Source: an archaeon (lineage in GTDB: Archaea > Iainarchaeota > Iainarchaeia > Iainarchaeales > 1-14-0-10-31-34). Taken from it: DNA of 32,000 bases. Each line of letters starts with the position of its first letter. Position 1 is the stretch's first letter. The stretch is taken from NCBI GenBank assembly GCA_024277355.1, contig JAJRVL010000002.1, positions 30,001 through 62,000 of the forward strand. Direction: 5' to 3'. The position numbers and the translations under genes are program-made. The notes beneath the pieces were generated by a model that searched no databases, had not been told where the DNA came from, and saw only the letters and a list, made by a program, of their open reading frames with translations. Below are positions 6,381 through 23,750 of the stretch, one piece after another.

Positions 6381-7010
6381 TTATTTATTTAATTCAGTTT
6401 GAATTGCCTGCTTTAAATTACTCCATTTGCCAATTTTTTTTCCGTTAACAAAAAAGCTTGGAGTTGAATTTACTCCTTTAGATATTCCTTCCTGAATGTC
6501 TTTATTAACAACTGAATCTTTAGCTGTTCCTTCAAGTGTTGCAGTAAATTTCTCTATGTCTAATTCAAGTTCTTCTGCATATTTAATTAAATCTTCTTTT
6601 TTCAGATTATCCTGATTTTCAAATAATTTATCGTGATATTCCCAGAATTTTCCCTGGTCTCCTGCTGCTTCAGCTGCAACTGCAGCTTTAAATGCATAAG
6701 GATGAATTGAAGTTAAAGGAAAATGCCTGTATTCAAACCGAACTTCATCCTGAAATTCATTTATTGTATTTTTAGCATAATTATAAGCTGAACCGCATGC
6801 AGGACACTGAAAATCAGAATACTCGATTACAACAACTTTTGCATCTATGTTTCCTTTAAACGGTCTTCCATCATTTCCTGTCGGAGCAGGATTATTATTC
6901 ATAACCATAAATCCAATTACTATTACAAGAATAACAACTGCTATTCCGCCATAAAGCATTGAATTAGATTTTTTTTCGGTTTCCATTTTTTTTTCTTTTA
7001 ATTTACTCAA
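6381..7010 (-). CDS. Membrane-anchored DsbA-like thiol:disulfide oxidoreductase (CPAC active site)
   Basis: 209 aa. N-terminal TM segment (GGIAVVILVIVIGFMVM), then YSDFQCPACGS and the cis-Pro region NSTPSFFVNGKK, as in DsbA-like thioredoxin-fold proteins. Probable TTG start preceded by GGGGTG. Confidence 0.8.
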   Translation of the reverse strand: MSKLKEKKMETEKKSNSMLYGGIAVVILVIVIGFMVMNNNPAPTGNDGRPFKGNIDAKVVVIEYSDFQCPACGSAYNYAKNTINEFQDEVRFEYRHFPLTSIHPYAFKAAVAAEAAGDQGKFWEYHDKLFENQDNLKKEDLIKYAEELELDIEKFTATLEGTAKDSVVNKDIQEGISKGVNSTPSFFVNGKKIGKWSNLKQAIQTELNK

Positions 7011-7111
7011 GACAACACCCCTTTTCTTTATTTAATCATCAAACTGTTTAAATTAGTTGTTTTTTTTGTCAGTAATTTTTTTATTAGCAGTTTCTTTTTA
7101 TTTTGTTTTAT

Positions 7112-9706
7112 TTATTTTTTAAAAAAACTTGCTTTAAATCTTTTCATAAGTAATGAGTTTGTTACAACTGAAACTGAACTAAAAGCCATTGCAGTTCCTG
7201 CAATAACAGGGCTTAATAAAATTCCTGTAAAAGGAAATAAAATTCCTGCTGCAATCGGAATTCCAATTACATTATAAGCAAAAGCCCAGAAAAAATTCTG
7301 TTTTATTTTGTTCATTGCATATTTGCTTAATTCAATTGCAGTAACTACATCTCTTAAATCATTTTTAACTAAAATTACATCTCCTGTTTCAATTGCAATA
7401 TCTGTTCCTGAACCAATTGCAATTCCAATGTCTGCCTGAGCCAAAGCAGGAGCATCATTTATTCCGTCTCCTACCATTGCAACTTTAAGGTTTTCTTTTT
7501 GTAATTCTTTTACTTTTTCTGCTTTTTCTTCAGGCAGAACTTCAGCAAAAACTCTTTCAATTCCAATTTGGTCTGCTATGGCTCTTGCAGTTCTTTCATT
7601 GTCTCCTGAAATCATTATTGTGTCAAGGTTCATTTTATTAAGAATTTTTATTGCTTCAAAAGAATTTTCTTTTAATGTATCGGCTACAGCAATAATTCCT
7701 GCAGGAGTATTGTTAACTGAAATTACAACAGCAGTTTTTCCTTGTTTTTCAAGTTTTTGCAGGGAACTTTCAATAAACTCAGTTTTAATTTTATTTTCTT
7801 CCATTAATTTTCTGTTTCCAAGCAGAATATTTTTTTTATTGTAAACTGCCTGAATTCCTTTTCCGCTGATGGAATTAAAGTTTTCTGGTTCCTTTAAAAT
7901 AATTTTTTGTTCTTTTGATTTTTTGACTATTGCTTCTCCTAAAGGGTGTTCTGATTTATTTTCTATTGCTGCTGCAATTTCTAATACTTCTTTTTCTTTA
8001 AATCCATTTAAAGAAATAATATTTGTTACTTCAGGTTTTCCTTTAGTTAAAGTTCCTGTTTTATCAAAAACAATTGTGTTAAGTTCTCCTGTTTTCTGCA
8101 ATGCTTCAGCATTTTTAATTAATATTCCGTGTTCTGCGCCTAAACCTGTTCCAACCATTACTGCAGTAGGAGTAGCCAAGCCAATTGCACAAGGACATGC
8201 AATAATCATTACACTAATAAAAATAGTTAAAGCAAAAAGAAATGCCTGTCCTCCAATAAAAAACCAGAATAAAGCAGAAACAACCGCAATAATCATTACT
8301 GCAGGAACAAAAACAGAAGCAATTTTGTCTCCTAATTCTTGTATTGGAGCTTTGCTTCCTTGTGCGTCTTCAACAAATTTAATTATTTGTGCTAAAGCAG
8401 TTTCTTCTCCAATCTTTTCTGTTTTAAATTTAAAGCTTCCTGTCTTATTTATTGTTGCTCCAATTACTGTGTCATTAATGTTTTTTTCTACTGGAATACT
8501 TTCGCCTGTAACCATGCTTTCATCAATACTTGAATGACCTGAAATTACTTTGCCGTCAACAGGAATTTTCATTCCGGGTTTAACAATAACAATATCTCCA
8601 ACTAAAACTTCTTCTATTGGAATTTCAATTTCTTTTCCGTTTCTTTCAATTAAAGCAGTTTTTGCCTGCAAGCCCATTAATTTTTTTATTGCTTCAGAAG
8701 TTTTTCCTTTAGCTAATGATTCAAAATATTTTCCTAATAAAATAAATGCAATTAAGAACGCTGCAACTTCAAAATACAAATCTTTTGAACTAAACAAAGA
8801 AGAACCAGTTAAAATTGCAATAACTGCAATTAAACTGTAAACATAAGCAGAACCAACTCCAATTGCCACAAGAGAATCCATATTAGGGTTTTTGTTTAAA
8901 ATTAATGCTTTAAAACCAGAAGTAAAAAATCTTCTTCCAATCCACATCACAGGAGTAGCAAGCAAAAACTGAATTATAGCTTCATTTTGCATAATAAATT
9001 CGGGGACAGGTAATGGGAAAAAATTTGAAAACATTAAATACATTAAAGGAAGTGATAAACCAATTGCACTAAGAAATTTATTTTTATATGATTCAATTTC
9101 TTTTTGTCTTGCTTCTTTTTCTATGTCAGATGTTTCTGTTTTTTCTGCTTTATAGCCTGCGTTATCTATTGCTTTAATTAAATCACTTGTTTTTACTTTA
9201 TCTGAATCAAAAAAAACTGTTGCTTTTTGTGTTGTTAAGTTAGTCTGATAACTTTTCACTCCGTCAATTTTTTCTAAAGTGCTTTCAATTATTCCAATGC
9301 AATGCTGTGATTCCATTCCATGAACTTTTAATATAACTTTATTTTTTCCTTTTTCAGGTTCTTTTTTGATTACTCCATAACCTGCTTTTTTTATTGCTTT
9401 TTCAAATAAACCTGAATTGGCTTTATTTTTATCAAAAACAATTGTTGCTTTTTCTGTTGCATAATTAACATTAGCAGATTTAACTCCTTCAACTTTATTT
9501 AATGCTTTTTCTATTGTTAAAGCACAGGAAGCACAATGCATATCTTTAATCAAAATGCTTTGTTTTGAATCAGAAATTAAAGGGTGTTTGTGTTCTTTAG
9601 TTTTTTCTTCCCCTAAAAACTTTTCATAACAATTCTTTGAACAAAAAAAGTATTCTTTTCCGTTCTTAACTGTCTTAAATTTAGCTTTTTCTTTTTCTAT
9701 TTCCAT
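7112..9706 (-). CDS. copA: Copper-translocating P1B-type ATPase (YHS-like N-terminus + 2 HMA domains)
   Basis: 864 aa with TGES, the CPC motif ([11 protein letters not shown]), DKTGT, SEHPLG and [13 protein letters not shown]1 has MHCASC. HMA2 is degenerate (GMESQHC, a single Cys). The N-terminus [15 protein letters not shown] is the C-terminal half of a YHS/TRASH motif. The first half (DPSCG) lies upstream of the ATG (see findings), so the true start is uncertain. Confidence 0.95.
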
Positions 9707-9729
9707 TCCGCAGGAAGGGTCTTTAACTT

Positions 9730-10116
9730 TTATTTTACCACCATGTCAACAACTTTTTTTAATTTTGCTTCAACTTCAATTCCAATTTCTTCTAATTCCT
9801 TGTTTCCAATTAAATCCATCATAATAGAAGGAAGAATCGCTGAAATAAAAACTTTTCCTTTGTCTTTAAAAATAATTACATTGCAAGGCAAAAACAAACC
9901 AATTTCTTTTTCTGCTTTTAATGTCTTAAATGCAAAAGAAGGATTGCATGCTCCAAGAATTTTATATTCATTAAATTCTTCATTTAATTTTTCTTTTAAG
10001 GTTTTTTTAACATCAATTTCAGTTAAAACTCCAAAACCTTCTTTTTTCAGTTCTTCAAAAGCTTTATTATAAGCTTCCTGAAAACTTCCATTAAATTCTT
10101 TTTTATATCCATACAT
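9730..10116 (-). CDS. DUF302 domain protein
   Basis: 128 aa. The pattern [37 protein letters not shown] matches DUF302 as I remember it. It sits immediately upstream of copA in the same orientation. Confidence 0.8.
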
Positions 10117-10162: not shown

Positions 10163-10181
10163 AAGGGCTAAAAAAGCCCTT
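10163..10181 (-). terminator. GC-rich stem-loop AAGGGCT-N5-AGCCCTT
   Basis: A 7-bp perfect stem stands out in AT-rich DNA. On the minus-strand RNA it lies 7 nt after the mini-ORF stop and upstream of DUF302-copA, and is followed by T-runs. Confidence 0.4.
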
Positions 10182-10281: not shown

Positions 10282-10527
10282 TTAAGCAAATTTATTGTAA
10301 GCCAATGCTATTGCATATCCAAAAACAAAACCAATTATTCCTGCTTCAATTATTCCAAGAATTATTCCTGTTGGGGTCAAAGAAAAAAACATGTGTCCTT
10401 CCTGCATCATGTTCGCCATTCCGGAATAAATTCCAAAATTTCCAAAAACTCCCATTAAAAGCATTGCTAAAGCAGAAACAATTCCTCCTGCATAACCTAG
10501 TGCAAGTTCATTTAATTTTTCACTCAT
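10282..10527 (-). CDS. Small two-TM membrane protein (81 aa from the SD-preceded ATG)
   Basis: The track ORF 10282..10569 has an internal ATG at 10527 preceded by AGGAGGG. The sequence MSEKLNELALGYAGGIVSALAMLLMGVFG..GIIGFVFGYAIALAYNKFA has two hydrophobic helices. Confidence 0.6.
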   Translation of the reverse strand: MSEKLNELALGYAGGIVSALAMLLMGVFGNFGIYSGMANMMQEGHMFFSLTPTGIILGIIEAGIIGFVFGYAIALAYNKFA

Positions 10528-10562
10528 TTTTTCCCTCCTTTTTACTAATCCTATTAGGTAAC

Positions 10563-10579
10563 ATATCATAATATGATAT
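10563..10579. promoter_or_regulatory. 17-bp perfect palindrome ATATCATA-A-TATGATAT in a divergent promoter region
   Basis: It lies between the small membrane protein gene (-) and the PadR::TRASH regulator gene (+), just upstream of a TTTTTAAAT TATA-like box (10585-10593). It is a candidate operator. Confidence 0.35.
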
Positions 10580-10614: not shown

Positions 10615-11049
10615 ATGGCTAAAATAAAAGTAGATAATTTAGCAAAGTTTTATGCGATTATTTTGTTATTTGAAGGTCCAAAACATGGCTATGATTTAAT
10701 TAAAATAGTTGGAGAAAAACTTAACAGAAAAATTTCTGCAGGACAGATTTATCCTTTTCTTGCGAAACTTCAGAAAGAAAATTACATAAAAATTAAATCT
10801 GAAGGGAAAAGAGAAAAAAAAATTTATAGATTAACTCCTTTAGGAAAAAGATTCTGTGAATCAATGCTCCATAGGTTTGCTGATTTAATTGAATTAGCTA
10901 TTGAACCAAATCTTTCAAAATGTGCCAGCTGCGGCTGTGAAATATATAAAGGAAGTTATAAAGAAAAAATTAAAGGAAAACTAACTACTTTTTGCTGTTC
11001 TCATTGCGCTGCATCATTTAAAAACTGCTCTAAAACAAAAACACATTAG
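10615..11049 (+). CDS. PadR-like winged-helix regulator fused to a C-terminal TRASH-type Cys domain
   Basis: 144 aa. The PadR pattern is LLFEGPKHGYDLIK..SAGQIYPFLAKLQKENYI..KKIYRLTPLGKRF. The C-terminus is CASCGCEI..(19 aa)..FCCSHCAASF, i.e. CxxC...CxxxC as in TRASH/YHS metal-binding modules. Confidence 0.8.
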   Translation: MAKIKVDNLAKFYAIILLFEGPKHGYDLIKIVGEKLNRKISAGQIYPFLAKLQKENYIKIKSEGKREKKIYRLTPLGKRFCESMLHRFADLIELAIEPNLSKCASCGCEIYKGSYKEKIKGKLTTFCCSHCAASFKNCSKTKTH

Positions 11050-11501
11050 TTTTTGCAGTTTCTGCATTTTAATTCTTTATAAATCAAATAAATCAAAATT
11101 ATTACTGATGCAATTCCCAGAAAAGGCCTTAATGGCTCAATAAATGCCATAATTGTTGTAAAACCCAATACTGAAACAAGAAGCAGATTACATACCGGAC
11201 AGCTAAAAGCAACAAAACCTATGCTTCCTCCAGCTATTGTTTTGAAATCAGCCTTATTTTTTGACTTAAAATAAAGTTTTAACGAAATTAATGCTCCAAG
11301 AAGTGCTGATGTTGAAACCAAAAAAAAGTAATCCAAAACTGTTGCAGGAATCATTCTTGTGTATTTAATTAAAGGATTTGGGATTAATGCTGTTGGAATT
11401 CCCATAACTAAGAATAATGAGATTGAAATAATTATTCCTGCAAAAAAATATTTTATTTTTGGATTCAATTTTTTTCCCTTCAAAACGAAATAATTATTCA
11501 A
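11046..11501 (-). CDS. 4-TM membrane protein with intramembrane CPVC pair (paralog A)
   Basis: 151 aa. GGSIGFVAFSCPVCNLLLVSVLG sits in predicted helix 3, and there is a C-terminal CRNC. It overlaps the upstream gene by 8 nt. Architecture is shared with 12090..12539 and 16214..16780. Confidence 0.65.
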   Translation of the reverse strand: MNNYFVLKGKKLNPKIKYFFAGIIISISLFLVMGIPTALIPNPLIKYTRMIPATVLDYFFLVSTSALLGALISLKLYFKSKNKADFKTIAGGSIGFVAFSCPVCNLLLVSVLGFTTIMAFIEPLRPFLGIASVIILIYLIYKELKCRNCKN

Positions 11502-12078
11502 AAATTATTTTAATTACATCTTTTTCTTTTATGACATAATTTCTGAATTCAAAATTTTCTTTTCCATTAACAAGCATTTTTACTTTTCCTTTATTTCCGT
11601 TGCATAAATCTCCGTTTGTTTTATTCATTATTTTTGTTTCACTGAATTTTACTGCAATCCCGTCAAAAAATTTTCCTAAAGTAATATGTTCAGGGCTTTG
11701 AACATTTCCTTCAATATGGATTAATGAGTCTTCATGAGTATGAAGTAAATTACTTCCAAGATGTCTGTTGGTTAATGGAACAGGAGTGCTTTTTTTTTCT
11801 CCGCAGATTTCAATTAAAGGCGTTGCATGCCAGTGTATGTTTCCTAAAGGAAAAGTCAAATTTCCTGTATTAAGATTTGAATTTCCTGTTTCTGAATTCC
11901 CTGAAAAAACAAAAACTGAAAAAATTGAACCAATAAAAATCAACACCAAAGCAATTGAACTGTATTTTTTTATTTTTCCTGTTGTGTTTTTTCTTTGCTG
12001 TTCTTTAACTTTTTCCTGTTTTCTTTGTTTAAGTTTTAATTTTTTTCTTTCATGTTTTGAAAGTTTTTCCTGAGTCAT
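11494..12078 (-). CDS. N-terminally anchored secreted protein with HWH / HTHED..H..IE His motifs
   Basis: 194 aa with a Lys-rich cytoplasmic head, one TM segment and a domain GNIHWHATPLIEICGEKK..LLHTHEDSLIHIEG..LGKFFD. It resembles an uncharacterised His-motif family that I recall next to DsbA-like genes. That recollection is from memory. Confidence 0.6.
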   Translation of the reverse strand: MTQEKLSKHERKKLKLKQRKQEKVKEQQRKNTTGKIKKYSSIALVLIFIGSIFSVFVFSGNSETGNSNLNTGNLTFPLGNIHWHATPLIEICGEKKSTPVPLTNRHLGSNLLHTHEDSLIHIEGNVQSPEHITLGKFFDGIAVKFSETKIMNKTNGDLCNGNKGKVKMLVNGKENFEFRNYVIKEKDVIKIIFE

Positions 12079-12089
12079 TTTTTCACCAC

Positions 12090-12539
12090 TTATTTTTTAA
12101 ATGCTCCTAAATAGTTTAATGTAAAAAAGAGCAGTCCAATGCTAAACAAATTTATTGCCCATCCGTATTCTGCCAGAAAACTGATTGCACCAATTGGCAG
12201 AAATAATGCGCCTAAAGAAGCGCAAGCAGGGCATTGTGCTACTAAAAATAATCCTGCAGTTCCTGCTCCGCTTCCTCCAGCTCCGCTGATTTTCCTGTTA
12301 ATACTGCATGTTTTTGGCTGAAGCCAGTTAAAAACCTGAAATGAAAAAGTGATTCCAAATAAAACAGCAAAAACAACAAACAAAATAGCGTTATAGAAAG
12401 GTATGCTTGCAAACCATATTTCAATATTTTCAATTATTCCAAGAACTTGAGTATAAATATAAATAACTGTAATAATTATTGTTGAAATAACAGCCAATGA
12501 AAAATATTTTGGTTTTTTCAGAACATCAATTAATTTCAT
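12090..12539 (-). CDS. 4-TM membrane protein with intramembrane CPAC pair (paralog B)
   Basis: 149 aa. It has a Gly-rich loop SGAGGSGAGTAG followed by LFLVAQCPACASLGALFL. It lies directly downstream of the DsbA-like gene 12604..13386. Confidence 0.65.
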   Translation of the reverse strand: MKLIDVLKKPKYFSLAVISTIIITVIYIYTQVLGIIENIEIWFASIPFYNAILFVVFAVLFGITFSFQVFNWLQPKTCSINRKISGAGGSGAGTAGLFLVAQCPACASLGALFLPIGAISFLAEYGWAINLFSIGLLFFTLNYLGAFKK

Positions 12540-12573
12540 TTTTATTGCCTTTTATTTTTTTTTTAGAGGGGTC

Positions 12574-12600
12574 AAAGGGCGCAATAAAATTACGCCCTTT
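12574..12600 (-). terminator. GC-rich stem-loop AAAGGGCG-N11-CGCCCTTT
   Basis: 8-bp perfect stem located 4 nt downstream of the stop of the DsbA-like gene (minus strand). It occupies the only sizeable gap (64 nt) in this gene run. Confidence 0.45.
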
Positions 12601-12603
12601 AAT

Positions 12604-13386
12604 TTAACTCAGCAGTAAATCAATTGCTGACTTAAATGTTTCAAATGGCTGGGCTCCAACTATAAGCCGGCCTGTTCCATCTTTTTTTCCAATGAAAAAA
12701 CTTGGAGTCCCGCTTACTCCTATGTTGCTTCCTTCATTGAAATTTGCCTGAACAATTTTAGAGTATTTTTTTGAATCAAGGCAGGAATCAAATTCGCTTG
12801 AATTTAATCCTAAATTTTTTGCCCATGACTTAATGTCTTTTACTGTAAGATTAGAAACTGTTCCTTGTCCAAATTTAGCTTGTTCTTCAAATATTTTGTT
12901 GTGCATTTCCCAGTATTTTTCCTGTTCGCCTGAACATCTTGCAGCTTCAGCATAAGGCTGAGCCATTGAATGAAAACTCAAAGGAAAATCTTTATAGACA
13001 AAAAATACTTTTCCTGTTTCAACATAGTCTTTATCCAGCTGGGATTTTGTATTATTAAACCAGCTCCTGCAGAAAGGACACTGATAATCAGAAAACTCAA
13101 CTATTATTACTGGTGCGTTTGGGTTTCCAAGTGTTGCAGCAGCATTTTCAAGAAGTTCGTTCATCTGAATGCTTCCTTTAGAGTCAACAGAAGGAATAGG
13201 AGAAGGATTTGGCGCAAGTATTTCTTTTGAATCTTTTGGTATTACTTGTGTTTTTTTAAATTCTGACAGTAATGTTATTTTTCCGCTGATTTCCTCTCCT
13301 GAAATAAATATTGCTGCTGAAACAATTAATGCTGAGACAAGCACAACTATTGAAAATATATTTATTAAATTTTTTTCTTTATTCAA
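12604..13386 (-). CDS. Membrane-anchored DsbA-like thiol:disulfide oxidoreductase (CPFC active site)
   Basis: 260 aa with an N-terminal TM segment, FSDYQCPFCRSW and GVSGTPSFFIGKKDG. Second DsbA-like gene in the window. Confidence 0.8.
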   Translation of the reverse strand: MNKEKNLINIFSIVVLVSALIVSAAIFISGEEISGKITLLSEFKKTQVIPKDSKEILAPNPSPIPSVDSKGSIQMNELLENAAATLGNPNAPVIIVEFSDYQCPFCRSWFNNTKSQLDKDYVETGKVFFVYKDFPLSFHSMAQPYAEAARCSGEQEKYWEMHNKIFEEQAKFGQGTVSNLTVKDIKSWAKNLGLNSSEFDSCLDSKKYSKIVQANFNEGSNIGVSGTPSFFIGKKDGTGRLIVGAQPFETFKSAIDLLLS

Positions 13387-13399
13387 TTAAATTCCTCCT

Positions 13400-16959: not shown

Positions 16960-18174
16960 CTAAAAAGCAAACAAAAACAGTATTCCTGCAAGTATCAGCA
17001 ATACAATTCCCATTAATAATTTCATGTTTCTTTTGTTTTGTTTTTCCCAGTTAGTGATTTTTTCTGTCATTTTTTTGTTGCCTGCAACTAATAAAATTAT
17101 TATTAACGGAACAACAAACATTATATTGTAAATTGTAAGGAAAACCATTCCTTGCATAAATGTTGTTTGAATTGCAAGCAATGAAAGTATTCCTACATAA
17201 ACTCCTCCGCTGCATGGAAAAGTGCATAATCCAACCAAAAAGCCAAGTATTGCAACAGAAACAAGAGTTAAGTTTGTCATTCTCTTTTTTATCATTGGAG
17301 AAGCAAAAGAAGGCATTTTTAAGCTAAACCATTTGCCGTAAAAAAAGTAATCTTTAAAGTTAATTAAAGCCAAAAACAGCATTAAAAACACACTGATTTT
17401 TCCAAATAAATGCGGAATTCCTGTAATTAATATTGCCTGAAGTAAACCTAATCCAATCAAAAAATAAGCAACAAAAATTGCTGCAATAAATACTCCTCCA
17501 ACTTTCCAGACTTCTGTTTTTGTGCGGTTAATCGAATAAAGAAATGCAATGAAAAATAATAATACTCCGAAAGCACAGGGATTAATTCCATCTAATAATC
17601 CTGTAATTAAAACCAAAGGTAAAAGCTGAATGAAATCCAAATTATTATTTTTTAATTCTTTTGGGGTTGTCAGTGAATTCTTGTTTTTATTAAACCAGTT
17701 TAAATAAACTGAAATTGGTTTATTAATTTTGTATTCTTTTATTTCTCCTTTAAATGCCCAGACTTTATAGTTTTTTGCGTTTTCCATTTCGTCTTGAAAC
17801 ACAACAATTTTTTCAATGCTTTTATCAATTAAAATATCTTTGATTATTTGTTCAGGGACATGCCCTTCAAGAATTATTTTGTTGTCAATAAAAATAGTAA
17901 AATGACCTTGTAATTGAGATGGAATACTTAATTTTTTGCTTAATTCATTTAATTCAATTCTATTTTCTTTTTCACTTATAAAATCTTTTTTTTCAACTTT
18001 AATGCTGTATGATTCAAGCAATGGTTCAATGTTGTCTTCTATATACATTGTACAGCCGTGGCATGCTTTATTATAGTAAATTACTGCGTTTTTGTATTCT
18101 GTTGCAAAAGAAAACGCAGGAACTAACAGTAAAAATAATAATAATACAATAATTTTTTTTGTCATTTTTTTCAT
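16960..18174 (-). CDS. Fusion of a secreted CopG/DUF411-like domain with a CcdA/DsbD-type transmembrane thiol-disulfide transfer domain
   Basis: 404 aa. After the signal peptide comes VIYYNKACHGCTMYIED..IPSQLQGHFTIFIDNKIILEGHVPEQIIKDIL; the EGHVP block and an early Cys motif are as I recall for DUF411. The 6-TM half has GINPCAFGVLLFF and LCTFPCSGGVYVG, one Cys in each half as in CcdA. Confidence 0.75.
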   Translation of the reverse strand: MKKMTKKIIVLLLFLLLVPAFSFATEYKNAVIYYNKACHGCTMYIEDNIEPLLESYSIKVEKKDFISEKENRIELNELSKKLSIPSQLQGHFTIFIDNKIILEGHVPEQIIKDILIDKSIEKIVVFQDEMENAKNYKVWAFKGEIKEYKINKPISVYLNWFNKNKNSLTTPKELKNNNLDFIQLLPLVLITGLLDGINPCAFGVLLFFIAFLYSINRTKTEVWKVGGVFIAAIFVAYFLIGLGLLQAILITGIPHLFGKISVFLMLFLALINFKDYFFYGKWFSLKMPSFASPMIKKRMTNLTLVSVAILGFLVGLCTFPCSGGVYVGILSLLAIQTTFMQGMVFLTIYNIMFVVPLIIILLVAGNKKMTEKITNWEKQNKRNMKLLMGIVLLILAGILFLFAF

Positions 18175-18590
18175 CTCACAATATTTGCTTTTAATTCTAT
18201 TTCTATTTCAGGTTTTTCAATATCATTGCTTTTTACATAAACAATTCTTTCTATTTTTCCTTCAATACCTTTTTCCATTAAATTCGGGTCAATTGTTACA
18301 AGAAGTTTTGCTGTTTCTCCTGAATTAATTAATTTTTTGTCAATTGTTCCTTTTGTGCATCCGCAGGAAGTGCTTATTCCTGTTATTTCAAGAATTCCTG
18401 TTCCCTTATTTTTAACAAAAAAAACATATTCTATTTTTTCGTAAGGAACATTTCCAAAATCATAAAATTCAGGGGTAATTTCTATTTTTGGTTTATTGTT
18501 TTCTAAACTTTGATTTTCAGGAATTGAAATACACCCTGAAAAAATAATCAATGTTATAATCCCTATTCCTAAAAGAAATTTTTTTTTCAT
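18171..18590 (-). CDS. DUF1573-like lipoprotein (SCGCT motif)
   Basis: 139 aa. The signal peptide ends in FSGC. YDFGNVPYEKIEYVFFVKNKGTGILEITGISTSCGCTKG matches the DUF1573 pattern. A 4-nt ATGA overlap links it to the next gene. Confidence 0.75.
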   Translation of the reverse strand: MKKKFLLGIGIITLIIFSGCISIPENQSLENNKPKIEITPEFYDFGNVPYEKIEYVFFVKNKGTGILEITGISTSCGCTKGTIDKKLINSGETAKLLVTIDPNLMEKGIEGKIERIVYVKSNDIEKPEIEIELKANIVR

Positions 18591-18593: not shown

Positions 18594-19187
18594 TTATGCC
18601 ACCTGGTTGACATTTATTTTTACTTTTTTTTCTGAATTTAAGGGATCGTCTGAATAAATTGAAACTATCCTTGTTACTGGCCCTCTTAAATCAGGGTGTG
18701 CAGTAGGATCATAAAAAATCTTTAATTGTGCTTCTTCTCCTGGTTCTAATATTTGTTTATAGCCGGGATTATTATGCATGCCAAATACAGGGCTTTGAAT
18801 TCCATTTATTATTATAACAGCGGTAGTGCACATACAAGAAGACTTTAATCCGTTTAATACTAGTTTTCCTTTTCCTTTATTTATTATTTCCATTGAAGTG
18901 CTTACTGTTCCTTTTCTAATGCTGACTGTTCCAAAATCATGAACTTCAGAACTAATTGTTATTAAGCCTGAACCTCTTGGATCAGGAGAATTATCAATTA
19001 TTCCCTGAATTAAAAACAAAGCAATTAATCCTAAAACTAAAACACCTATTCCAATTTTAATTATTTTTTTTCCTGTTTTTCTTCTGCTTAAATTTTTTTC
19101 TTCTTTATCTGTTTTTTCCTGTCTTAATTTTTTTTTAAGTTCTTTTTTTTCTCTTTTGCTTAATCCTTCAAAATCAGGTCTATTCAT
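18594..19187 (-). CDS. DUF1573-like protein, CMCT variant with a Met/His insertion
   Basis: 197 aa with a Lys-rich head, a TM segment and HDFGTVSIRKGTVSTSMEIINKGKGKLVLNGLKSSCMCTTAVIIINGIQSPVFGMHNNPGY. It is a paralog of 19188..20003. Confidence 0.65.
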   Translation of the reverse strand: MNRPDFEGLSKREKKELKKKLRQEKTDKEEKNLSRRKTGKKIIKIGIGVLVLGLIALFLIQGIIDNSPDPRGSGLITISSEVHDFGTVSIRKGTVSTSMEIINKGKGKLVLNGLKSSCMCTTAVIIINGIQSPVFGMHNNPGYKQILEPGEEAQLKIFYDPTAHPDLRGPVTRIVSIYSDDPLNSEKKVKINVNQVA

Positions 19188-20003
19188 TTATTCCACCTGA
19201 TCAATGTCAATTCTTACTTTTTTTTCAAAATCAACTGAGTCATTTGAAAAAACACTAATAACTCTGACTAAATGTTGTCCTTCAAGTCCTGAATGAACTG
19301 TTGGATCGTAATAAATTTTTAATTGAGCCTGTTGTTTTGGAGGAATAGTTACTGACCATCCTTTTGGATTGCCGTGCATGCTCATTCCAAATATTGGACC
19401 TTCTACTCCATTAAAAATTATTGAAGCAGTAGTGCACATACAGGAAGAATCCATATTATTTATTACTAAATCGCTTTCTCCGTCATTTCTTATTGTCATA
19501 ATTTTGCTTACTGTTCCTTTTCTAACGCTTACTTCTCCAAAATCATATGAATCCGGAGTAATAATTATTTTAGGCCTGTTTTCAGGGGCTCTTTCGGCCA
19601 ATTCAAGTCTTATTTCTTCTTCTAATTTTTTTCCTTCATCTGAAAGAGATTCCATTCCGTATTTTTTTACCATTTTAATTATTGCATCTGTTTTAGAAAT
19701 TTCTGTTTTCTCTAAAGAATCAATATACTCTAGTCTTTCTTTGGCTGAACCGCAGCAAATATTTTCTTTATCTAAAGGCCTGTTGCAGCATGAACAAATA
19801 AATAATCCATAAACTTCGTCTGCTTTAAATGGTTCTGCTAAAATTATTTTTCCTGTAACAGGCGGCATAGTTTTCTCAGAATTTAATGCAACTGGAGTCT
19901 GGGTTATAAATGAATTTGCTAAAAAAATTAAAGAAATAACAATTAAAGCCATTGCTGTAAAATACAATTGATTTTTTTTACTTTTTATTTTTTCTTTATC
20001 CAT
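19188..20003 (-). CDS. Cys-cluster N-domain + DUF1573-like CMCT-variant domain
   Basis: 271 aa with a TM anchor, FICSCCNRPLDKENICCGSAKE, then YDFGEVSVRKGTVSKIMTIRNDGESDLVINNMDSSCMCTTASIIFNGVEGPIFGMSMHGNP. Confidence 0.65.
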   Translation of the reverse strand: MDKEKIKSKKNQLYFTAMALIVISLIFLANSFITQTPVALNSEKTMPPVTGKIILAEPFKADEVYGLFICSCCNRPLDKENICCGSAKERLEYIDSLEKTEISKTDAIIKMVKKYGMESLSDEGKKLEEEIRLELAERAPENRPKIIITPDSYDFGEVSVRKGTVSKIMTIRNDGESDLVINNMDSSCMCTTASIIFNGVEGPIFGMSMHGNPKGWSVTIPPKQQAQLKIYYDPTVHSGLEGQHLVRVISVFSNDSVDFEKKVRIDIDQVE

Positions 20004-20050: not shown

Positions 20051-20088
20051 TTGGTTTTAACGCATTATTTAATGCATTAACATTTTTT

Positions 20089-20439
20089 TTAGATGTATTT
20101 TCCTGACATCATAGGGCAGTGTTCTGTCATTTCCTCAAAGTTTCCTGATTCCATTGCCTTTTGCATTTCTTTAAAATCTTCTGAATCCATTGTTTCATGC
20201 ATTTCGTTTATTTCTTCTTTCCAGTTTTCCCCAAGCATTTGTTCGTGAAATTCCTCAAAGTTTCCTTTGTGCATTGTTTTATGCATTTTCTTCATGCCGA
20301 AAAAAGTTTCTTCTGGATTTTCAGTGTTTGAGTTATTTTCAGTATAATTTCCTTCTGAATGTGCTGTAACAGAAACAGAAATAATTCCAAGCAATGCAAC
20401 TACAAAAAGAGAAATTACTGCTGTTTTAAACAAATCCAT
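20089..20439 (-). CDS. Secreted Met/His/Glu-rich repeat protein (putative Cu-binding)
   Basis: 116 aa. After the signal peptide comes FFGMKKMHKTMHKGNFEEFHEQM..EMHETMDSEDFKEMQKAMESGNFEEMTEHCPMM. The GNFEE/DFKEM units repeat. SD is AGGAGATGG. Confidence 0.65.
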   Translation of the reverse strand: MDLFKTAVISLFVVALLGIISVSVTAHSEGNYTENNSNTENPEETFFGMKKMHKTMHKGNFEEFHEQMLGENWKEEINEMHETMDSEDFKEMQKAMESGNFEEMTEHCPMMSGKYI

Positions 20440-20458: not shown

Positions 20459-20475
20459 TTTACATTTAATGTAAA
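20459..20475. promoter_or_regulatory. Operator-like palindrome TTTACATT-T-AATGTAAA (box 1)
   Basis: A perfect 17-bp palindrome sits between a TATA-like ATTTAAAAA (20484-20492, minus strand) and the SD of the Met/His-rich protein gene. With flanks, GCTTTACATTTAATGTAAATC is 18/21 identical to box 2. Confidence 0.5.
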
Positions 20476-20496: not shown

Positions 20497-21213
20497 CTAG
20501 AGTTTTTCTCTTGCCTTGTCTAAAATTAGTGTTTCTTTTCCCATTTTTTTATCTAATTTTCTTTCTTCTAAAATGTCTAATTCTTCAAAATGAATTGGAA
20601 GAAGGCCAAAAGTTCCTGCCTTGACCGAAGAAAAAAATCTTTTAATATTGAAAAAAGAGCCTTTTAAATGCATTAATTCGTGCTTTATTACTGTTCTTAA
20701 TTCATTGTCTTCAAGCAGTTCAATTAATCCTGTTGAAATAAAAATTACTTTTTTGTATCCTGAAACGACAAAAGCATTTGGTTCTGAATTCACAAAAACA
20801 ATTATTTCGGGTTTTGTTATTGAAAGGTTTGCTGCTTCTTCTAAAGCAATTTTTTCTACTTTTTTGTCTTTTGTTTTTGTTATTCCTATTTTCATAAGCA
20901 AAGGAGAAAAAACATATGAGACAATAAAAAATAAGCCTGCAGCAATTAATGCTGTCTGGTGTGCTAAATGAAAAATTGTTGAATAATGTGAATTAGCAAA
21001 AGCAAGAATTAAAAGAAAAGTTATTATTGAAGTTGAAAGAATTGCTTTTGTAAAAAGACTTTGTTTTATTGAAAGTTTTTTTCTAAGTAAAATAAGAATT
21101 AAAATTGAAACAAGGATAAGGGTTATTAAAAAATAGTTAAAAGATGCGAGAAAAGGACTTTGCCCCGCAATACATTCGGTAGCGCATTGTAGTGTTGAAA
21201 CTCCTTCGCCCAT
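20497..21213 (-). CDS. BlaR1/MecR1-like (M56/M48-type) membrane zinc metalloprotease lacking a C-terminal sensor domain
   Basis: 238 aa with three TM segments, then EPNAFVVSGYKKVIFISTGLIELLEDNELRTVIKHELMHL (HExxH). The N-terminal extracytoplasmic end carries CATEC. It is directly downstream of the BlaI-like gene (10-nt gap). Confidence 0.7.
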   Translation of the reverse strand: MGEGVSTLQCATECIAGQSPFLASFNYFLITLILVSILILILLRKKLSIKQSLFTKAILSTSIITFLLILAFANSHYSTIFHLAHQTALIAAGLFFIVSYVFSPLLMKIGITKTKDKKVEKIALEEAANLSITKPEIIVFVNSEPNAFVVSGYKKVIFISTGLIELLEDNELRTVIKHELMHLKGSFFNIKRFFSSVKAGTFGLLPIHFEELDILEERKLDKKMGKETLILDKAREKL

Positions 21214-21223: not shown

Positions 21224-21586
21224 TTATTTAAGTTGTTTTCTCAAATAAGCTACAGAAGAACTTCCAAAAGTATTTTTCAGAAAAGAAAGGAATTTGTCAG
21301 AAATTTCCTCGCTTAATTCTTCTCTGCTGTATTTAGGAGAATAAATGTAAATTAAGCCGCCTTTTCCTTTGAGTATTTTTCTTGTAAGTATTCCTTTTGA
21401 GTGCATTCTGTCTGTTGTAACTGTTATAGTAGTATAAGCAACGTCATTCTTTTTTTTCACTAAATCAAATATTTCTCTGCAGGTGGCTTTTTCTTTTTTC
21501 CATAATGAATCCATTATGTCTGATTCAAGTTTTCCAACTAAAGAATTTAGTCCTTTTTTTTCAAAGTCAATTTTATTTAAATCCAT
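21224..21586 (-). CDS. BlaI/MecI/CopY-family winged-helix repressor
   Basis: 120 aa. LGKLESDIMDSLWKKEKATCREIFDLV..VAYTTITVTTDRMHSKGILTRK..YIYSPK follows the penicillinase-repressor pattern. It has no C-terminal CxCxxxxCxC copper hook. Confidence 0.8.
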   Translation of the reverse strand: MDLNKIDFEKKGLNSLVGKLESDIMDSLWKKEKATCREIFDLVKKKNDVAYTTITVTTDRMHSKGILTRKILKGKGGLIYIYSPKYSREELSEEISDKFLSFLKNTFGSSSVAYLRKQLK

Positions 21587-21633: not shown

Positions 21634-21650
21634 TTTACATCTTTTGTAAA
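21634..21650. promoter_or_regulatory. Operator-like inverted repeat TTTACA-N5-TGTAAA (box 2)
   Basis: It lies in the divergent region between the blaI-like gene and 21675..22328, directly after the palindromic TATA box TTTATAAA (21618-21625) and before the SD GGAGGT (21661). An additional ATGTA-N6-TACAT repeat overlaps it at 21625-21640. Confidence 0.5.
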
Positions 21651-21674: not shown

Positions 21675-22328
21675 ATGAATAATACAAAGTTTTTTCTTGT
21701 ATTGCTTGTTGCTTTAACAGCATTAACTCAGATTTATAATCTTTCACTTGAAAATTCAATTTCTTCTGATTTAATAAGTAATGTTGTTTTATCTTCTAAT
21801 GCGGATTCAGCTAACACAGTGACAGCAAATTTATCTAACAGCAATACACAGGAAAAAAAAACGCTTTCTCTTTCTGATATAATTCCTTCCGGGGTTCCTG
21901 AAATTTATGGAACAGAATTAGGAATAAGCTATGATGAACCTGTTGCAGGTTTAGCTGTATTAAAAAAACTTGATACTGCAATTTCTCTTGAAGGAAACTT
22001 ACAGGAAAGATATATTAAAGTAGGAACAAGCATTTCATGCGAATTTTGCTGCGGAGCAAAATCAATTACTTTTTCTGATGGAAGAGCAGCTTGTGGTTGT
22101 GCTCATTCTTATGCAATGAGAGGTTTAGCAAAATATTTGCTTCAAAATCACGCAGACAAATTTACTGATCAGGAAATTTTAAATGAATTAGTTAAATGGA
22201 AAACTTTGTTTTTTCCAAAACAAATGACTAAAAGAGCATTAGAATTAGCTGCACAAGAAGGAACTTATAATCAGGAACTTTTGAATAAAGTTAATTCAAG
22301 TGTTCCAGACATGGTAGGAGGTTGTTAA
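21675..22328 (+). CDS. Secreted Cys-cluster protein ending in PDMVGGC
   Basis: 217 aa with an N-terminal signal/anchor, SCEFCCGAKSITFSDGRAACGCAHSYAMRGL and the C-terminus SSVPDMVGGC followed by the stop. Confidence 0.65.
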   Translation: MNNTKFFLVLLVALTALTQIYNLSLENSISSDLISNVVLSSNADSANTVTANLSNSNTQEKKTLSLSDIIPSGVPEIYGTELGISYDEPVAGLAVLKKLDTAISLEGNLQERYIKVGTSISCEFCCGAKSITFSDGRAACGCAHSYAMRGLAKYLLQNHADKFTDQEILNELVKWKTLFFPKQMTKRALELAAQEGTYNQELLNKVNSSVPDMVGGC

Positions 22329-22329
22329 A

Positions 22330-22575
22330 ATGGATTTAAATAAAATTAGTTTTGATTCACTGCTTTTAGTTTTTGTAGCAGTATTGTTTATTGTTTCTGC
22401 AGTTTCAGCAGTGCAATTAAATGAATTACAGGGAAAAATTGTTTCTTTCAAAGAAACAAGCAGTTCAGTAGTTTCTCTGAGTTCTGATTCATCTTCTAAT
22501 ATTTCTTCATCTTCAAGTGACGAAGAAATTTTAGCAAAACTGAATCAAGCTCCAGATATGGTTGGAGGCTGTTAA
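22330..22575 (+). CDS. Small anchored Ser-rich protein ending in PDMVGGC
   Basis: 81 aa with a TM segment (LLLVFVAVLFIVSAVSAV), a Ser-rich linker and the C-terminus NQAPDMVGGC followed by the stop. It starts 1 nt after the previous stop. Confidence 0.6.
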   Translation: MDLNKISFDSLLLVFVAVLFIVSAVSAVQLNELQGKIVSFKETSSSVVSLSSDSSSNISSSSSDEEILAKLNQAPDMVGGC

Positions 22576-22604
22576 AGCCTCTTTTTATTTCTTTTTATAA
22601 TTAA

Positions 22605-23750
22605 TTGAATAAGAGTTTTTTTATGTCTTCAAAAAAAATGTTTCTTCCAAAAAAACCAATGATTTTAGCGGTTATTGCTCTTTTAGCTTTAATTATTTTT
22701 TCTGCTTTTTTTAGTATTCAGTCAATGAATAATGAATTAACTGAAAAAGAAAACAATTCTTTGGAAGAAAATTCTTTAAAAGACAATAATGAAATTAATA
22801 ATGCACTTCCTTTTGTTAAAATACTTTTAGTTAAAAATAACTGTGAAGACTGCTTTGATATTGATTTAATGGCGCAGCAAATTTATTCTTTTGATATCAA
22901 TGTTTTGTAAGTAAAAACAATTAATGCTGATTCAGAAGAAGGAATAAATTTAATTAAAATGCATGATTTGAATACTTTGCCCGCAATTATTATTAATGGT
23001 GAATTCAAAGGAACTGACTTAGAAACCCAATGGAAAACAATTGGTGAAGAAAAAAACGGAGTATTAATTGCAAGCAGGCCTCCTTATTATTCTTTAGAAG
23101 AAAAAAGAGTTAAAGGAAAAGTTGATTTATTATTAATAAAAAATTCTTCTTGTAAAGACTGCATTGACCTGAATTTTTTTGCTGACGACTTAAGAGAATT
23201 AGGCATTATAATTGAAAATGAAAGAACAATTGAATTTGATTCAGAAGAAGGACAATCTCAGATTGAATTTTATTTTATTGACAGAGTTCCTGTGGTTCTT
23301 TTAACCAGTGAAATTGGAGAGTATTCTTTTTTGAAACCTTTATGGAGCCAGATAGGAATAATTGCTCCTGATGGAAGTTATATTTACACTGAAGCTGTTC
23401 CTTTTTTTGATTTATTTTCAGAAGAAACTAAAGGGTTAGTTGAAGTAACAAGATTAATTGATGCAAATTGTTCTGATTGTGTTGATGTAAATGCAATTGT
23501 TTCTCCTTTAACTAAAATGGGCTTAAAAATAATCAAAGAAGAAACCTTTGATGTTTCATCTGAAAAAGGAAAAGAATTAATTGAAAAATATTCTATTACT
23601 AAAATTCCCACAATAATTGTTTCAGAGGAAGCTGAAGAATACACTGAATTTTTTGTTGTCTGGCCTAAAGTAGGAACAAAAGAAGAAGATGGATTTTTTG
23701 TTTTCAGAAATCTTGAAGTTTTAGGAAGCAATTTTATTACTTTAAAGTAA
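22605..23750 (+). pseudogene. Membrane-anchored protein with three thioredoxin-like CxDC repeats, interrupted by one in-frame TAA (22908-22910)
   Basis: Track ORFs 22605..22910 and 22959..23750 are in the same frame, separated only by a TAA. The repeats (~105 aa each) carry NCEDC, SCKDC and NCSDC plus a cis-Pro-like (L/V/I)P(A/V/T)(I/V) element. The stop falls inside repeat 1 (INVL*VKTINADSEEG, compare IIIENERTIEFDSEEG and LKIIKEETFDVSSEKG). The likely real start is the ATG at 22623. Confidence 0.65.

Follow-up and report, generated by a model that had tools for sequence, protein, structure and literature searches.

A 17-kb gene island of a DPANN-type archaeon and its proposed role in envelope copper stress

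A stretch of 32,000 nucleotides from an archaeal contig (JAJRVL010000002.1 of assembly GCA_024277355.1, positions 30,001 to 62,000; the window) contains a 17-kb block at window positions 6381-23750, which is bounded by an aminotransferase gene and an RPA gene and encodes 28 products. The original prediction, made from the DNA alone, regarded this block as an island of envelope proteins with Cys, His and Met motifs, and the analysis described here bears this out: a map of open reading frames (ORFs) reproduces the gene set, and the enrichment in membrane segments and Cys is significant. A hydrophobic anchor, signal or transmembrane (TM) segment is found in 23 of the 28 island products and in 1 of 15 flank products (Fisher p=2e-6), and the Cys content is 1.57% in the island against 0.59% in the flanks, a 2.7-fold difference (p=3e-6). 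The block probably constitutes a composite envelope system for copper (thiophilic-metal) stress, consisting of an efflux unit, a split DsbD/ScsB-like thiol relay and lineage-specific additions.

The flanks encode archaeal housekeeping proteins, namely A/V-type ATPase subunits A (C-terminal part), B and D, RadA, a class I/II aminotransferase and RPA, as well as a metallo-beta-lactamase-fold protein, GGGP synthase (PcrB), an epimerase, RtcA, an ITPase-like protein and SRP54. The window is AT-rich (GC ~0.29), and no GC step occurs at the proposed island borders. As the nearest relatives, whose CcdA fusion proteins (described below) are 84-86% identical to that of the window, are annotated as Candidatus Diapherotrites or Micrarchaeota, the host is a DPANN-type archaeon.

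Families were called with Pfam at curated cut-offs, and also with NCBIfam, PDB sequence profiles, Foldseek searches against the PDB and AlphaFold2 (AF2) models. Pfam backs nearly all of the metal and redox families predicted earlier; Thioredoxin_4/DSBA (twice), CopA, DUF302, PadR, Cupredoxin_1/COX2, NicO (N-terminal half), rhodanese, DUF1573 (three times), Peptidase_M48 and Penicillinase_R all score above cut-off. The DUF411, CcdA and TRASH calls fall under the Pfam threshold, yet homologs and motifs corroborate them. Gene neighbourhoods were surveyed by searching an alignment of the CcdA fusion against one genome per species, which gave 592 relatives, of which the best 80 loci were kept. The counts below cover 83 loci (L numbers), annotated by phmmer with the window proteins as queries; single relatives carry P numbers.

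Genes of the probable copper efflux unit and the candidate thiol relay

The efflux unit consists of four genes:
7112-9706, minus strand: CopA, P1B-1 Cu(I)-type ATPase with N-terminal YHS and two HMA domains (Pfam)
9730-10116, minus strand: cytoplasmic DUF302 protein, directly upstream of copA (Pfam DUF302, 1.5e-22)
10282-10569, minus strand: DUF5676-like protein with two TM segments (Pfam DUF5676, 2.7e-5, 25.4 bits against a cut-off of 27.6)
10615-11049, plus strand: PadR winged-helix regulator with a C-terminal TRASH-type Cys motif (Pfam PadR, 9.4e-15)

CopA matches the Pfam families E1-E2_ATPase (3.8e-56), Hydrolase (HAD, 9e-39), HMA (7e-32, in two stretches) and YHS (2.7e-8). The CPC, YN(x4)P and M(x2)SS residues, which define P1B-1 Cu(I)-ATPases, are present as CPC at 504, YNVIGIP at 811 and MAFSS at 840, along with DKTGT at 548 and the N-terminal CxxC (CASC at 58), so that with its ATPase and HAD domains the protein has every hallmark of this class. 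CopA is longer in the 84%-identical relatives, 1254-1258 residues (L001 14428-18192, L002 14416-18192) against 864 here; faint Intein_splicing and LAGLIDADG_3 matches lie between the ATPase and HAD parts of the L001 and L002 proteins, an insert that the window CopA does not have.

DUF302 also adjoins CopA in L001-L004, L019, L038, L040 and L042. The DUF5676-like gene, which was missing from the gene list of the original prediction, has an ortholog between PadR-TRASH and DUF302 in L001-L003. The tail of the PadR fusion gives weak Pfam matches (Ta0938, 6e-4; TRASH_HVO_1752_C, 0.009) and fits the TRASH pattern C-X2-C-X19-22-C-X3-C as an exact C-X2-C-X20-C-X3-C (C106, C127-x3-C131); orthologs occur in L001-L003 and L040. 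The fusion is a candidate metal sensor, which would act beside DUF5676-DUF302-CopA while CopA would export Cu(I). In its layout the unit is ordinary for an archaeal cop cluster, save that the TRASH regulator is a PadR variant. Like the Sulfolobus-type cluster (CopR/CopT, CopM/CopT, CopA), it has a TRASH-bearing regulator as the neighbour of a P1B-1 CopA, and the cluster also includes a small treble-clef protein rich in Cys. In contrast to that cluster, the DNA-binding domain is PadR instead of Lrp/HTH, the small protein lies beside a four-TM protein with a CCAHH motif and not beside CopA, and DUF302 and DUF5676 separate the regulator from the pump.

The candidate relay is encoded by a run of four genes:
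16960-18174, minus strand: signal anchor, thioredoxin (Trx) fold (DUF411-like, CHGC) and CcdA/DsbD-type six-TM electron transporter (Pfam DsbD_TM, DUF411)
18171-18590, minus strand: DUF1573 Ig-like exported or anchored protein (Pfam DUF1573)
18594-19187, minus strand: second DUF1573 protein, of the same kind
19188-20003, minus strand: third DUF1573 protein, of the same kind

The fusion protein can be aligned over its full length in more than 900 proteins. Its CcdA part matches DsbD_TM at 7.7e-6 (25.8 bits against a cut-off of 27.1), a family that matches 9 of 18 homologs, and its N-terminal domain matches DUF411 at E=0.015 (15.4 bits against 27), a weak match that recurs in 15 of the 18. Invariant residues comprise C38 and C41 (CHGC), Q89-G-H91, G104-H105-x-P107, N198-P-C200, C317 and F319-P-C321, the NPC and FPC cysteines being invariant among the 18 homologs. 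In the AF2 model (predicted local distance difference test, pLDDT, 76) the N-domain is a beta-alpha-beta domain with its CxxC at the start of helix 1, and Foldseek aligns it with thioredoxins in the PDB (TMt 0.46-0.59, root mean square deviation 3.2-3.7 A).

Searched against PDB sequences, the N-domain profile scores best with CopG (6wis, E=0.0049). The domain is similar to CopG (DUF411; PDB 6wis/6wje) in this match, in an LG(I/V)P...EGHVP segment, in the thioredoxin-like fold and in its genomic context with CopA; it differs in that the SCH of CopG reads QGH and in its fusion to a CcdA transporter. In Vibrio, copG (DUF411) belongs to the copper-induced CueR regulon with copA (PMC12341060).

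The three DUF1573 proteins are mutual paralogs with SCGCT/SCMCT motifs (Pfam 9.9e-15, 3.2e-11 and 2e-9; 54.8, 43.6 and 37.8 bits against a cut-off of 26.1), and DUF1573 also matches HYDIN/VesB-like Ig domains. The motif [ST]CxC[TS] is present in 87 of 87 DUF1573 copies of the loci, including all three of the window. Since DUF1573 has been listed as a selenoprotein in which UGC replaces CGC (PMC9312934, PMC13188914), these cysteines would be redox- or metal-active. The third protein (19188-20003) contains an extra CSCC...CCG segment at residues ~60-120, FICSCCNRPLDKENICCGSAKE, which resembles the CxxCC...CG of GGC1 (see below); this segment has no Pfam match at E<=0.05.

DUF1573 is found in 58 of the 83 loci; in 32 of the 40 loci passing a strict fusion-motif test it is no more than 300 bp away from the CcdA gene. 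It adjoins Trx-fold::CcdA in most loci from Chloroflexota, Patescibacteria, Bipolaricaulota, Hydrothermarchaeota, Thermoplasmata and DPANN, and single-chain DUF1573::Trx-fold::CcdA fusions occur in 5 of the 120 best homologs (P0073, P0106, P0107, P0109 and P0114). Ig-like, TM and Trx-like parts are the three modules of DsbD/ScsB (PMC3322552). Because an Ig-like Cys module, a Trx-like CxxC module and a CcdA-type core occur together, as adjacent genes here and fused elsewhere, DUF1573 and Trx-fold::CcdA can be read as a split, permuted analog of DsbD. The resemblance to DsbD/ScsB-ScsC extends to the exported thiol oxidoreductases that would be fed, to the link with copper tolerance and to the existence of three-module single chains (PMC3322552). 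The differences are that the Ig-like part is a DUF1573 with CxC, that the Trx-fold part is DUF411-like and N-terminal, that the parts are mostly separate genes, and that the hosts are DPANN, Patescibacteria and Chloroflexota; homologs of ScsA, ScsC and ScsD were not identified here.

GGC-tailed proteins, small membrane proteins and regulation

Divergent from the relay genes, three genes lie on the plus strand:
21675-22328, plus strand: GGC1, anchored, with a CxxCC...CxCAH helical domain and C-terminal PDMVGGC-COOH (homolog family)
22330-22575, plus strand: GGC2, 81 residues, TM anchor, Ser-rich linker and APDMVGGC-COOH, a tail-only partner (locus survey)
22605-23750, plus strand: anchored triple-Trx protein with the repeats NCEDC, SCKDC and NCSDC (NCBIfam PDO, 3.9e-7)

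Both predicted PDMVGGC tails are present. GGC1 has more than 1620 homologs, none of which has a Pfam domain or an informative name. Among the best 120, C-x-x-C-C is kept in 120, C-x-C-A-H in 112 and the exact GGC end in 109, and the tail of the GGC-ended homologs is nearly always x-(M/Q)-V-G-G-C-COOH. In the confident AF2 model (pLDDT 88) a TM helix at the N-terminus is joined by a disordered linker to a helical domain that bears two short Cys knuckles. For this model Foldseek finds nothing better than E=1.5 in the PDB, and the sequence profile matches no PDB chain.

Only 26 of 7521 ORFs in the 83 loci end in GGC, and all of them are GGC1, a TM4a::GGC1-like fusion or small ORFs of 66-108 residues made up of a TM anchor, a low-complexity linker and the tail. 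Such a small ORF directly follows GGC1 in nine distinct loci (L001, equal to L002, L013, L019, L023, L028, L040, L048, L055 and L056) and lies just upstream of triple-Trx instead in L017, L025, L030 and L047. The two tails co-vary within a genome (LPQQVGGC with LPQQIGGC, LPSQVGGC twice, LPDMAGGC twice, LPNMVGGC twice, and VPDMVGGC with APDMVGGC here), which points to a shared recognition partner. By analogy, the MVGGC tail might be a mobile terminal-thiol arm, a speculation for which the C-terminal redox or metal arms of MerA, DsrC and thioredoxin reductase are comparable in principle. The fusion mentioned above, on a Halobacteria contig (L054 9895-12084), joins a TM4a-like CPVC domain to a GGC1-like domain ending in RGGC; the N-terminal part of its long high-GC ORF is probably spurious.

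Triple-Trx gives weak Pfam matches to Thioredoxin_3/9, and full-length homologs stand beside GGC1 in Patescibacteria. The triple-Trx and NicO-like genes of the original prediction are both present, each cut by one in-frame stop. Single stops interrupt three otherwise intact genes, namely the NicO-like gene (TGA 15009-15011), triple-Trx (TAA 22908-22910) and the flanking RtcA gene (TAA 28238-28240). Profiles or homologs run across all of them (the triple-Trx homologs have K, A or Q at the stop position), and the fragments are the called genes on the deposited contig. The stops are either nonsense alleles or consensus errors. Stop-codon reassignment was rejected as their cause, as TGA and TAA also terminate normal genes.

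Three small membrane proteins and a Cys6 mini-protein are encoded on the minus strand, and two further genes lie in the same conserved run:
11046-11501, minus strand: TM4a, four TM segments (four hydrophobic segments), intramembrane CPVC and C-terminal CRNC; ortholog in L001
12090-12539, minus strand: TM4b, three to four TM segments, Gly-rich loop and CPAC; homologs in loci
15464-15856, minus strand: exported single-domain rhodanese, loop CRSGNMS, N-terminal hydrophobic segment (Pfam Rhodanese, 8.2e-14); ortholog at the matching position in L001-L004
15882-16202, minus strand: unnamed anchored Cys/His protein of 106 residues, without Pfam or NCBIfam match; ortholog between TM4c and rhodanese in L001-L003
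16214-16780, minus strand: TM4c, SM-ACC-HH intramembrane motif (family profile)
16802-16948, minus strand: cytoplasmic Cys6 treble-clef mini-protein of 48 residues, TRASH/YHS-like (Pfam DUF2116, 0.0029)

TM4a, TM4b and TM4c have no Pfam match, and TM4c has no NCBIfam or PDB relative either. In TM4a and TM4b the CPxC lies in a predicted helix after a Gly-rich loop, and TM4a adds a cytoplasmic C-terminal CxxC. Homologs of TM4b with an invariant C-P-x-C stand between DUF1573 and CcdA in the Patescibacteria loci L013, L017, L019 and L023. The earlier description of the three as paralogs was overstated, and paralogy at the BLASTP level is rejected, since BLASTP detects none. By hhalign, whose scores among TM proteins can rise through composition, TM4b is linked to TM4a (93% probability, E=3e-7) and TM4c to TM4b (88%), and no link was found between TM4c and TM4a. 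The three may thus be remote relatives, at profile level only, with TM4b as a bridge. Two other assignments were discarded: the 141-residue gene after rhodanese in L001 is not half of a NicO but a TM4a ortholog by phmmer, and a MerTP identity for TM4a was set aside, the match (4.2e-5) being partial and off the Cys motif, with 23 bits against a cut-off of 180.

TM4c is present in 13 of the 83 loci, and an exhaustive profile search gave at least 1000 representatives of its family at 50% identity, 802 of them at E<=1e-10, with the invariant pattern S-M-x-A-C-C-x-H-H...D...G...Y-Q...N..G..M. Family members carry N-terminal fusions to two HMA domains (P0280), HMA (P0388), YHS (P0367) or YHS+HMBD (P0294), which are cytoplasmic metal-binding domains of P1B pumps. 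Because of these fusions, TM4c is more likely a permease for thiophilic metals than a DsbB analog. The mini-protein (CFYC...CSGKC...CEFC) lies directly upstream of TM4c, has orthologs in L001-L004 and shows a Cys spacing of 13 residues, shorter than the 19-22 of TRASH; with TM4c it looks like a split form of YHS::TM4c. The small four-TM Cys proteins (CCAHH, CPxC) would be metal permeases, not DsbB analogs, with the mini-protein as their chaperone. MerT, MerC and MerF are likewise small and membrane-bound, with a Cys pair within a TM helix, and the TM4c family shares with them the fusions to HMA-type domains; unlike them, the present proteins show no significant sequence match, carry CCAHH and CPxC motifs, and lack a mercuric reductase as a partner. 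One TM4c relative of 490 residues (P0353), a single case, is fused to an ICMT/PEMT-like methyltransferase domain. The ICMT family methylates C-terminal cysteine carboxyls in eukaryotes, and the fusion is intriguing beside proteins that end in a free cysteine.

The regulatory features lie between the relay genes and GGC1:
20089-20439, minus strand: exported Met/His-rich protein, 12 Met and 6 His in 116 residues, with internal repeats; no Pfam match
20459-20475, no strand: dyad TTTACA-N5-TGTAAA, upstream of the Met/His gene with which the DUF1573-CcdA run begins
20497-21213, minus strand: membrane M48/M56-type zinc protease (HELMH), 238 residues, three TM segments (Peptidase_M48, 8.5e-11, 42.5 bits)
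21224-21586, minus strand: BlaI/MecI/CopY-family repressor (Pfam Penicillinase_R, 5e-15, 56.3 bits)
21634-21650, no strand: second copy of the dyad, in the divergent blaI/GGC1 intergenic region

The Met/His-rich protein, whose internal repeats are visible in the DNA, has an ortholog after M48 in L001-L004. BlaI homologs occur in 10 loci, Patescibacteria included, and the protease is paired with BlaI in L001-L004, L019, L078 and L086. The exact dyad occurs twice in 32 kb against 0.01 expected, and none of 100 shuffles reaches two. Both copies are kept at orthologous sites in L001-L003, and the one upstream of the Met/His gene also in L004, whose contig ends before the other site. TACA/TGTA dyads are the classical BlaI/MecI operator type, and the two are therefore candidate operators of this type. 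As a dyad precedes both, the GGC genes and the DUF1573-CcdA genes may belong to one candidate regulon, in which the BlaI repressor and the M48 membrane protease would control the thiol module through TTTACA-N5-TGTAAA.

The pair resembles BlaI/BlaR1 (MecI/MecR1) in combining a Penicillinase_R repressor with a membrane HExxH protease and TACA/TGTA dyads as candidate operators. It differs from BlaI/BlaR1 in that the protease has no penicillin-binding sensor domain and fits M48 better than M56 (Peptidase_M56 is weak, 0.0018, 18 bits against a cut-off of 31), and from CopY in that the repressor has no C-terminal CxCx4CxC. The protease is likely a signal transducer, and an N-terminal Cys pair is a candidate sensor within it.

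Terminator-like hairpins lie after the Met/His gene (before the DUF1573 run), over the GGC2 stop and between DUF5676 and DUF302; hence the long minus-strand run predicted as an operon may be several units. Just before the hairpin between the Met/His gene and DUF1573 there is a near-perfect palindrome (20057-20080, TTAACGCATTA-TT-TAATGCATTAA), which may be a second regulator site. Two GC-rich hairpins amid AT-rich intergenic DNA, at 10163-10181 (AAGGGCT...AGCCCTT) and 12570-12600 (AAAGGGCG...CGCCCTTT), are possible terminators or protein-binding sites. A sigma-70 promoter scan of the window was uninformative (65 sites against 77 expected), and the host is archaeal.

Conserved linkage, origin and interpretation

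The genes are not scattered in other genomes: the ~84%-identical relatives keep a collinear compact cluster, and sub-modules are ordered alike in other phyla. In a Diapherotrites genome (GCA_002763225.1) and two other assemblies, GGC2-GGC1 are divergent from BlaI-M48-Met/His-DUF1573x2-CcdA-mini-TM4c-106aa-rhodanese-TM4a, followed by PadR::TRASH on the opposite strand and DUF5676-DUF302-CopA. This compact cluster is without the window segment 11494-15437 and has other neighbours (HxlR, cytochrome b5, RNase HII). In the Patescibacteria loci L013, L017, L019 and L023 the order BlaI-(M48)-GGC1-tripleTrx-DUF1573x2-TM4b-(TM4c)-CcdA...CopA is that of the window, and in Chloroflexota it is DsbA-DUF1573-CcdA-DUF1573-(CopA). 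Among the 83 loci, DUF1573 is followed in frequency by CopA (39, within 10 kb), DsbA-like proteins (~18), GGC1 (16), cupredoxin (14), TM4c (13), triple-Trx (10) and BlaI (10).

Loci anchored on GGC1 were examined separately to avoid circularity. An archaeal contig shows CopZ-CopA-GGC1-GGC2-Trx-like...HMA::DsbD_TM, and a Micrarchaeota contig shows DUF302...cupredoxin-PadR-M48-BlaI divergent from Trx-GGC1-GGC2...DUF5676. The CopZ-CopA-GGC1-GGC2-Trx-like cluster ends with a 457-residue HMA::DsbD_TM/DsbD_2 fusion (L085 12458-13831). The neighbourhood of CopA in 39 of 83 loci and the fusions HMA/YHS::TM4c and HMA::DsbD_TM tie copper to the thiol genes. In many of the loci L072-L083 (Chloroflexota and others), a cupredoxin gene is directly followed by a CcdA relative without the Trx-fold N-domain, which is a different, recurrent arrangement.

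The horizontal acquisition proposed in the original prediction is not supported as a recent event, as the composition is native, the relatives are DPANN and marks of mobile elements are missing. The view that the block is a bacterial genomic island of recent acquisition, or unrelated genes brought together by chance, could appeal to BlaI/M48, DUF1573, DUF411-like and CcdA families, which are commoner in bacteria, to flanks that differ between the window genome and its relatives, and to archaeal and bacterial sequences interleaved in the CcdA tree. Against it, island and flanks agree in GC (0.296 vs 0.285), in GC at third codon positions (0.179 vs 0.136), in relative synonymous codon usage (r=0.97) and in tetranucleotides (r=0.94-0.99 between 4-kb segments); the island has neither a tRNA or Rfam element nor an integrase or flanking repeat, which leaves it without the marks of a mobile island; the nearest relatives of the CcdA fusion and GGC1 are DPANN archaea; and gene order is kept far beyond chance. 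Recent and chance origins are thus most improbable and already largely refuted. In a rough neighbour-joining tree of the CcdA fusion, built without support values, the window protein groups with Diapherotrites, Micrarchaeota and AR10, whereas Woesearchaeota/Nanoarchaeota with Hydrothermarchaeota, and Thermoplasmata, interleave with bacterial clades. This interleaving makes a past inter-domain exchange of the module likely, and the window copy is long resident. The further claims of the original prediction, that the block is self-contained and that no client is present, extend no further than the 32-kb window.

From the family assignments, motifs, gene order, domain fusions and operator conservation, all of which are observed, we infer an electron path, a metal, a direction of transport for the four-TM proteins and a role for the MVGGC arm. 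Electrons from cytoplasmic thioredoxin would cross the membrane via the CcdA domain (Cys200, Cys317/321) and reach the fused Trx-fold, CopG-like domain (CHGC and two invariant His), from which they would pass to the CxC of DUF1573 and then to the clients GGC1/GGC2, the PDO-like triple-Trx protein and rhodanese. Such a relay would keep surface thiols reduced, so that Cu(I) could be bound or passed on and wrong disulfides formed by copper catalysis could be undone. Copper efflux combined with an Scs/DsbD-like reductant relay, built from different, largely unnamed families, is the most likely interpretation of the island. In the literature that was searched, neither the module nor a function of DUF1573 nor the MVGGC tail turned out to be described. 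It is conceivable, although we put this forward tentatively and at somewhat less than even chances, that the core (BlaI/M48, GGC1 and GGC2, triple-Trx, DUF1573, the four-TM CPxC and CCAHH proteins and Trx-fold::CcdA) is an undescribed envelope thiol-metal system of DPANN, Patescibacteria and other phyla, in which the co-varying (M/Q)VGGC-COOH arms would shuttle Cu(I) or electrons among the Cys6-His domain, the split relay and the small permeases.

Several points weigh against the copper-stress interpretation. About half of the loci, many of them short contigs, have no CopA, and in a third GGC1-anchored locus (L084) the linkage is only loose, with CopA 7 kb away. Both the DsbD_TM and the DUF411 match of the fusion protein lie under the Pfam thresholds, and Foldseek gave no Trx match at E<=0.001 (E 0.5-1.7), values that are weak because the whole 404-residue model was the query. 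CxCC is the CopG motif, and this copper-cluster motif is replaced in the N-domain by an invariant CxxC (CHGC here). A thioredoxin/thioredoxin reductase donor was not seen within the 32-kb window, the unnamed families of the island are known from sequence alone, and the hhalign links among the four-TM proteins are open to the compositional effect mentioned above. As triple-Trx and the NicO-like gene are interrupted, this copy may also be partly decaying.

The same genes might serve general extracytoplasmic disulfide formation or isomerisation for the surface proteins of an episymbiont (pili, S-layer, adhesins), the copper genes being mere envelope neighbours. Two DsbA-like proteins, the PDO-like triple-Trx protein, CcdA and an exported rhodanese would suit this function, about half of the CcdA-anchored loci have no CopA within reach, and an A24 prepilin peptidase is encoded nearby (28833-29672). 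It is judged unlikely, since metal-binding domains are fused to members of the module (HMA/YHS::TM4c, HMA::DsbD_TM), the Met/His-rich protein, cupredoxin, TRASH, YHS and DUF302 are interleaved with the thiol genes in an order kept in relatives, the N-domain is nearest to the copper protein CopG, and Pfam finds no DsbB or VKOR in any product of the window. Copper could also be acquired and inserted to mature extracytoplasmic cuproproteins such as the CuA-type cupredoxin (cf. Sco/PCuAC/TlpA), instead of being detoxified. CcdA-fed Trx-like reductases (TlpA) prepare CuA-site cysteines in bacteria; a CuA-motif cupredoxin lies within the block, CcdA-type genes directly follow cupredoxin genes in Chloroflexota L072-L083, and ScsB-TlpA offers a precedent (PMC3322552). 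However, the compact cluster of the 84%-identical relatives and most Patescibacteria loci have neither the cupredoxin nor its neighbours (11494-14759), and the CopA type, the YHS/HMA domains and the Met/His-rich protein belong typically to efflux and sequestration, which makes this alternative quite improbable.

A shade more doubtful still is the idea that the target is a different thiophilic metal or metalloid (Hg, Ag, Cd, Ni/Co), which the small membrane proteins with Cys pairs would take up in Mer-like fashion. The vicinal or paired TM cysteines and the cytoplasmic Cys pair do resemble the logic of MerT/MerC/MerF, P1B-1 pumps move Ag(I) too, and the weak partial MerTP match of TM4a and the His-rich NicO-like transporter point the same way. 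Yet neither the window nor the relatives encode a MerA, MerB, MerR or ArsR-type metal enzyme, the MerTP match does not cover the Cys motif and falls far below its cut-off, and the NicO-like gene is interrupted and absent from relatives.

DPANN archaea and Patescibacteria have tiny genomes and a host-attached life, and an envelope module of several genes whose order is retained in both groups is likely to matter for their surface chemistry. The copper-stress interpretation proposes roles for unnamed families, with DUF1573 as the Ig-like arm of a split DsbD, the DUF411-like Trx domain as powered by CcdA and the CCAHH/CPxC four-TM proteins as metal permeases; it delineates the (M/Q)VGGC-COOH-tailed pair and supplies a candidate regulatory circuit, BlaI/M48 with a defined candidate operator. 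It would carry the connection already known between copper stress and the repair of envelope thiols (Scs/DsbD) over to archaea and candidate-phyla bacteria, and the core as an undescribed system would, if true, be of high interest.

Further genes of the island and its flanks

The remaining genes of the island are as follows:
6381-7010, minus strand: DsbA-like 1, membrane-anchored, CPAC at residue 69 (Thioredoxin_4, 3.5e-27; DSBA, 7.7e-17)
11494-12078, minus strand: membrane-anchored His-motif protein (HWH...HTH...HIE), 8 His, one anchor, of an unnamed family
12604-13386, minus strand: DsbA-like 2, membrane-anchored, CPFC (Thioredoxin_4, 3.4e-35; DSBA, 2.5e-20)
13400-13804, minus strand: exported cupredoxin, CuA-type motif, lipoprotein-like N-terminus (Cupredoxin_1, 2.4e-15; COX2, 1.8e-10)
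13811-14089, minus strand: anchored protein of 92 residues, C-terminal CKISC, one hydrophobic segment, family unknown
14157-14477, plus strand: membrane protein of 106 residues
14481-14759, plus strand: winged-helix regulator of 92 residues (weak Pfam)
14766-15437, minus strand: NicO/DsbD_2-superfamily His-rich transporter gene with TGA at 15009-15011 (Pfam NicO, 1.4e-10, 41.4 bits, N-terminal half)

The two DsbA-like oxidases, the CuA-type cupredoxin, the His-motif protein and the now-interrupted NicO-like transporter would be the lineage-specific additions. The DsbA-like proteins are 39% identical, and both combine a domain above cut-off, CPxC and an anchor, in the form of one N-terminal hydrophobic segment each; in Chloroflexota loci, DsbA-like genes flank DUF1573-CcdA. 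The CuA-type motif of the cupredoxin, CSVYCGEKHGNM, lies at residue 116 and reads C-x3-C-x3-H-x2-M. When the stop is replaced, NicO and DsbD_2 (36.6 bits) cover residues 8-215 of the NicO-like product; as deposited, the gene is not the intact ORF expected of NicO/RcnA, and the called gene is a 142-residue fragment. The His-motif protein has no meaningful Pfam, NCBIfam or PDB match, and the CKISC protein has neither a Pfam or NCBIfam match nor a homolog in the 83 loci. The winged-helix regulator weakly matches HTH_45 (1.5e-4) and HTH_5 (0.0065), and the pair that it forms with the 106-residue membrane protein is missing from the compact cluster of L001.

The window yielded neither an Rfam family nor a tRNA, nor any long repeat that is meaningful. 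Three flank products have unusual low-complexity parts: RadA (3189-4310) carries a Lys/Thr-rich repeated N-terminal extension of ~60 residues, with 57-nt DNA repeats at 4113-4226, the ATPase B subunit (731-2272) has a Lys-rich C-terminal tail, and an unassigned 212-residue protein (4479-5117) has a Lys/Pro-rich tail.

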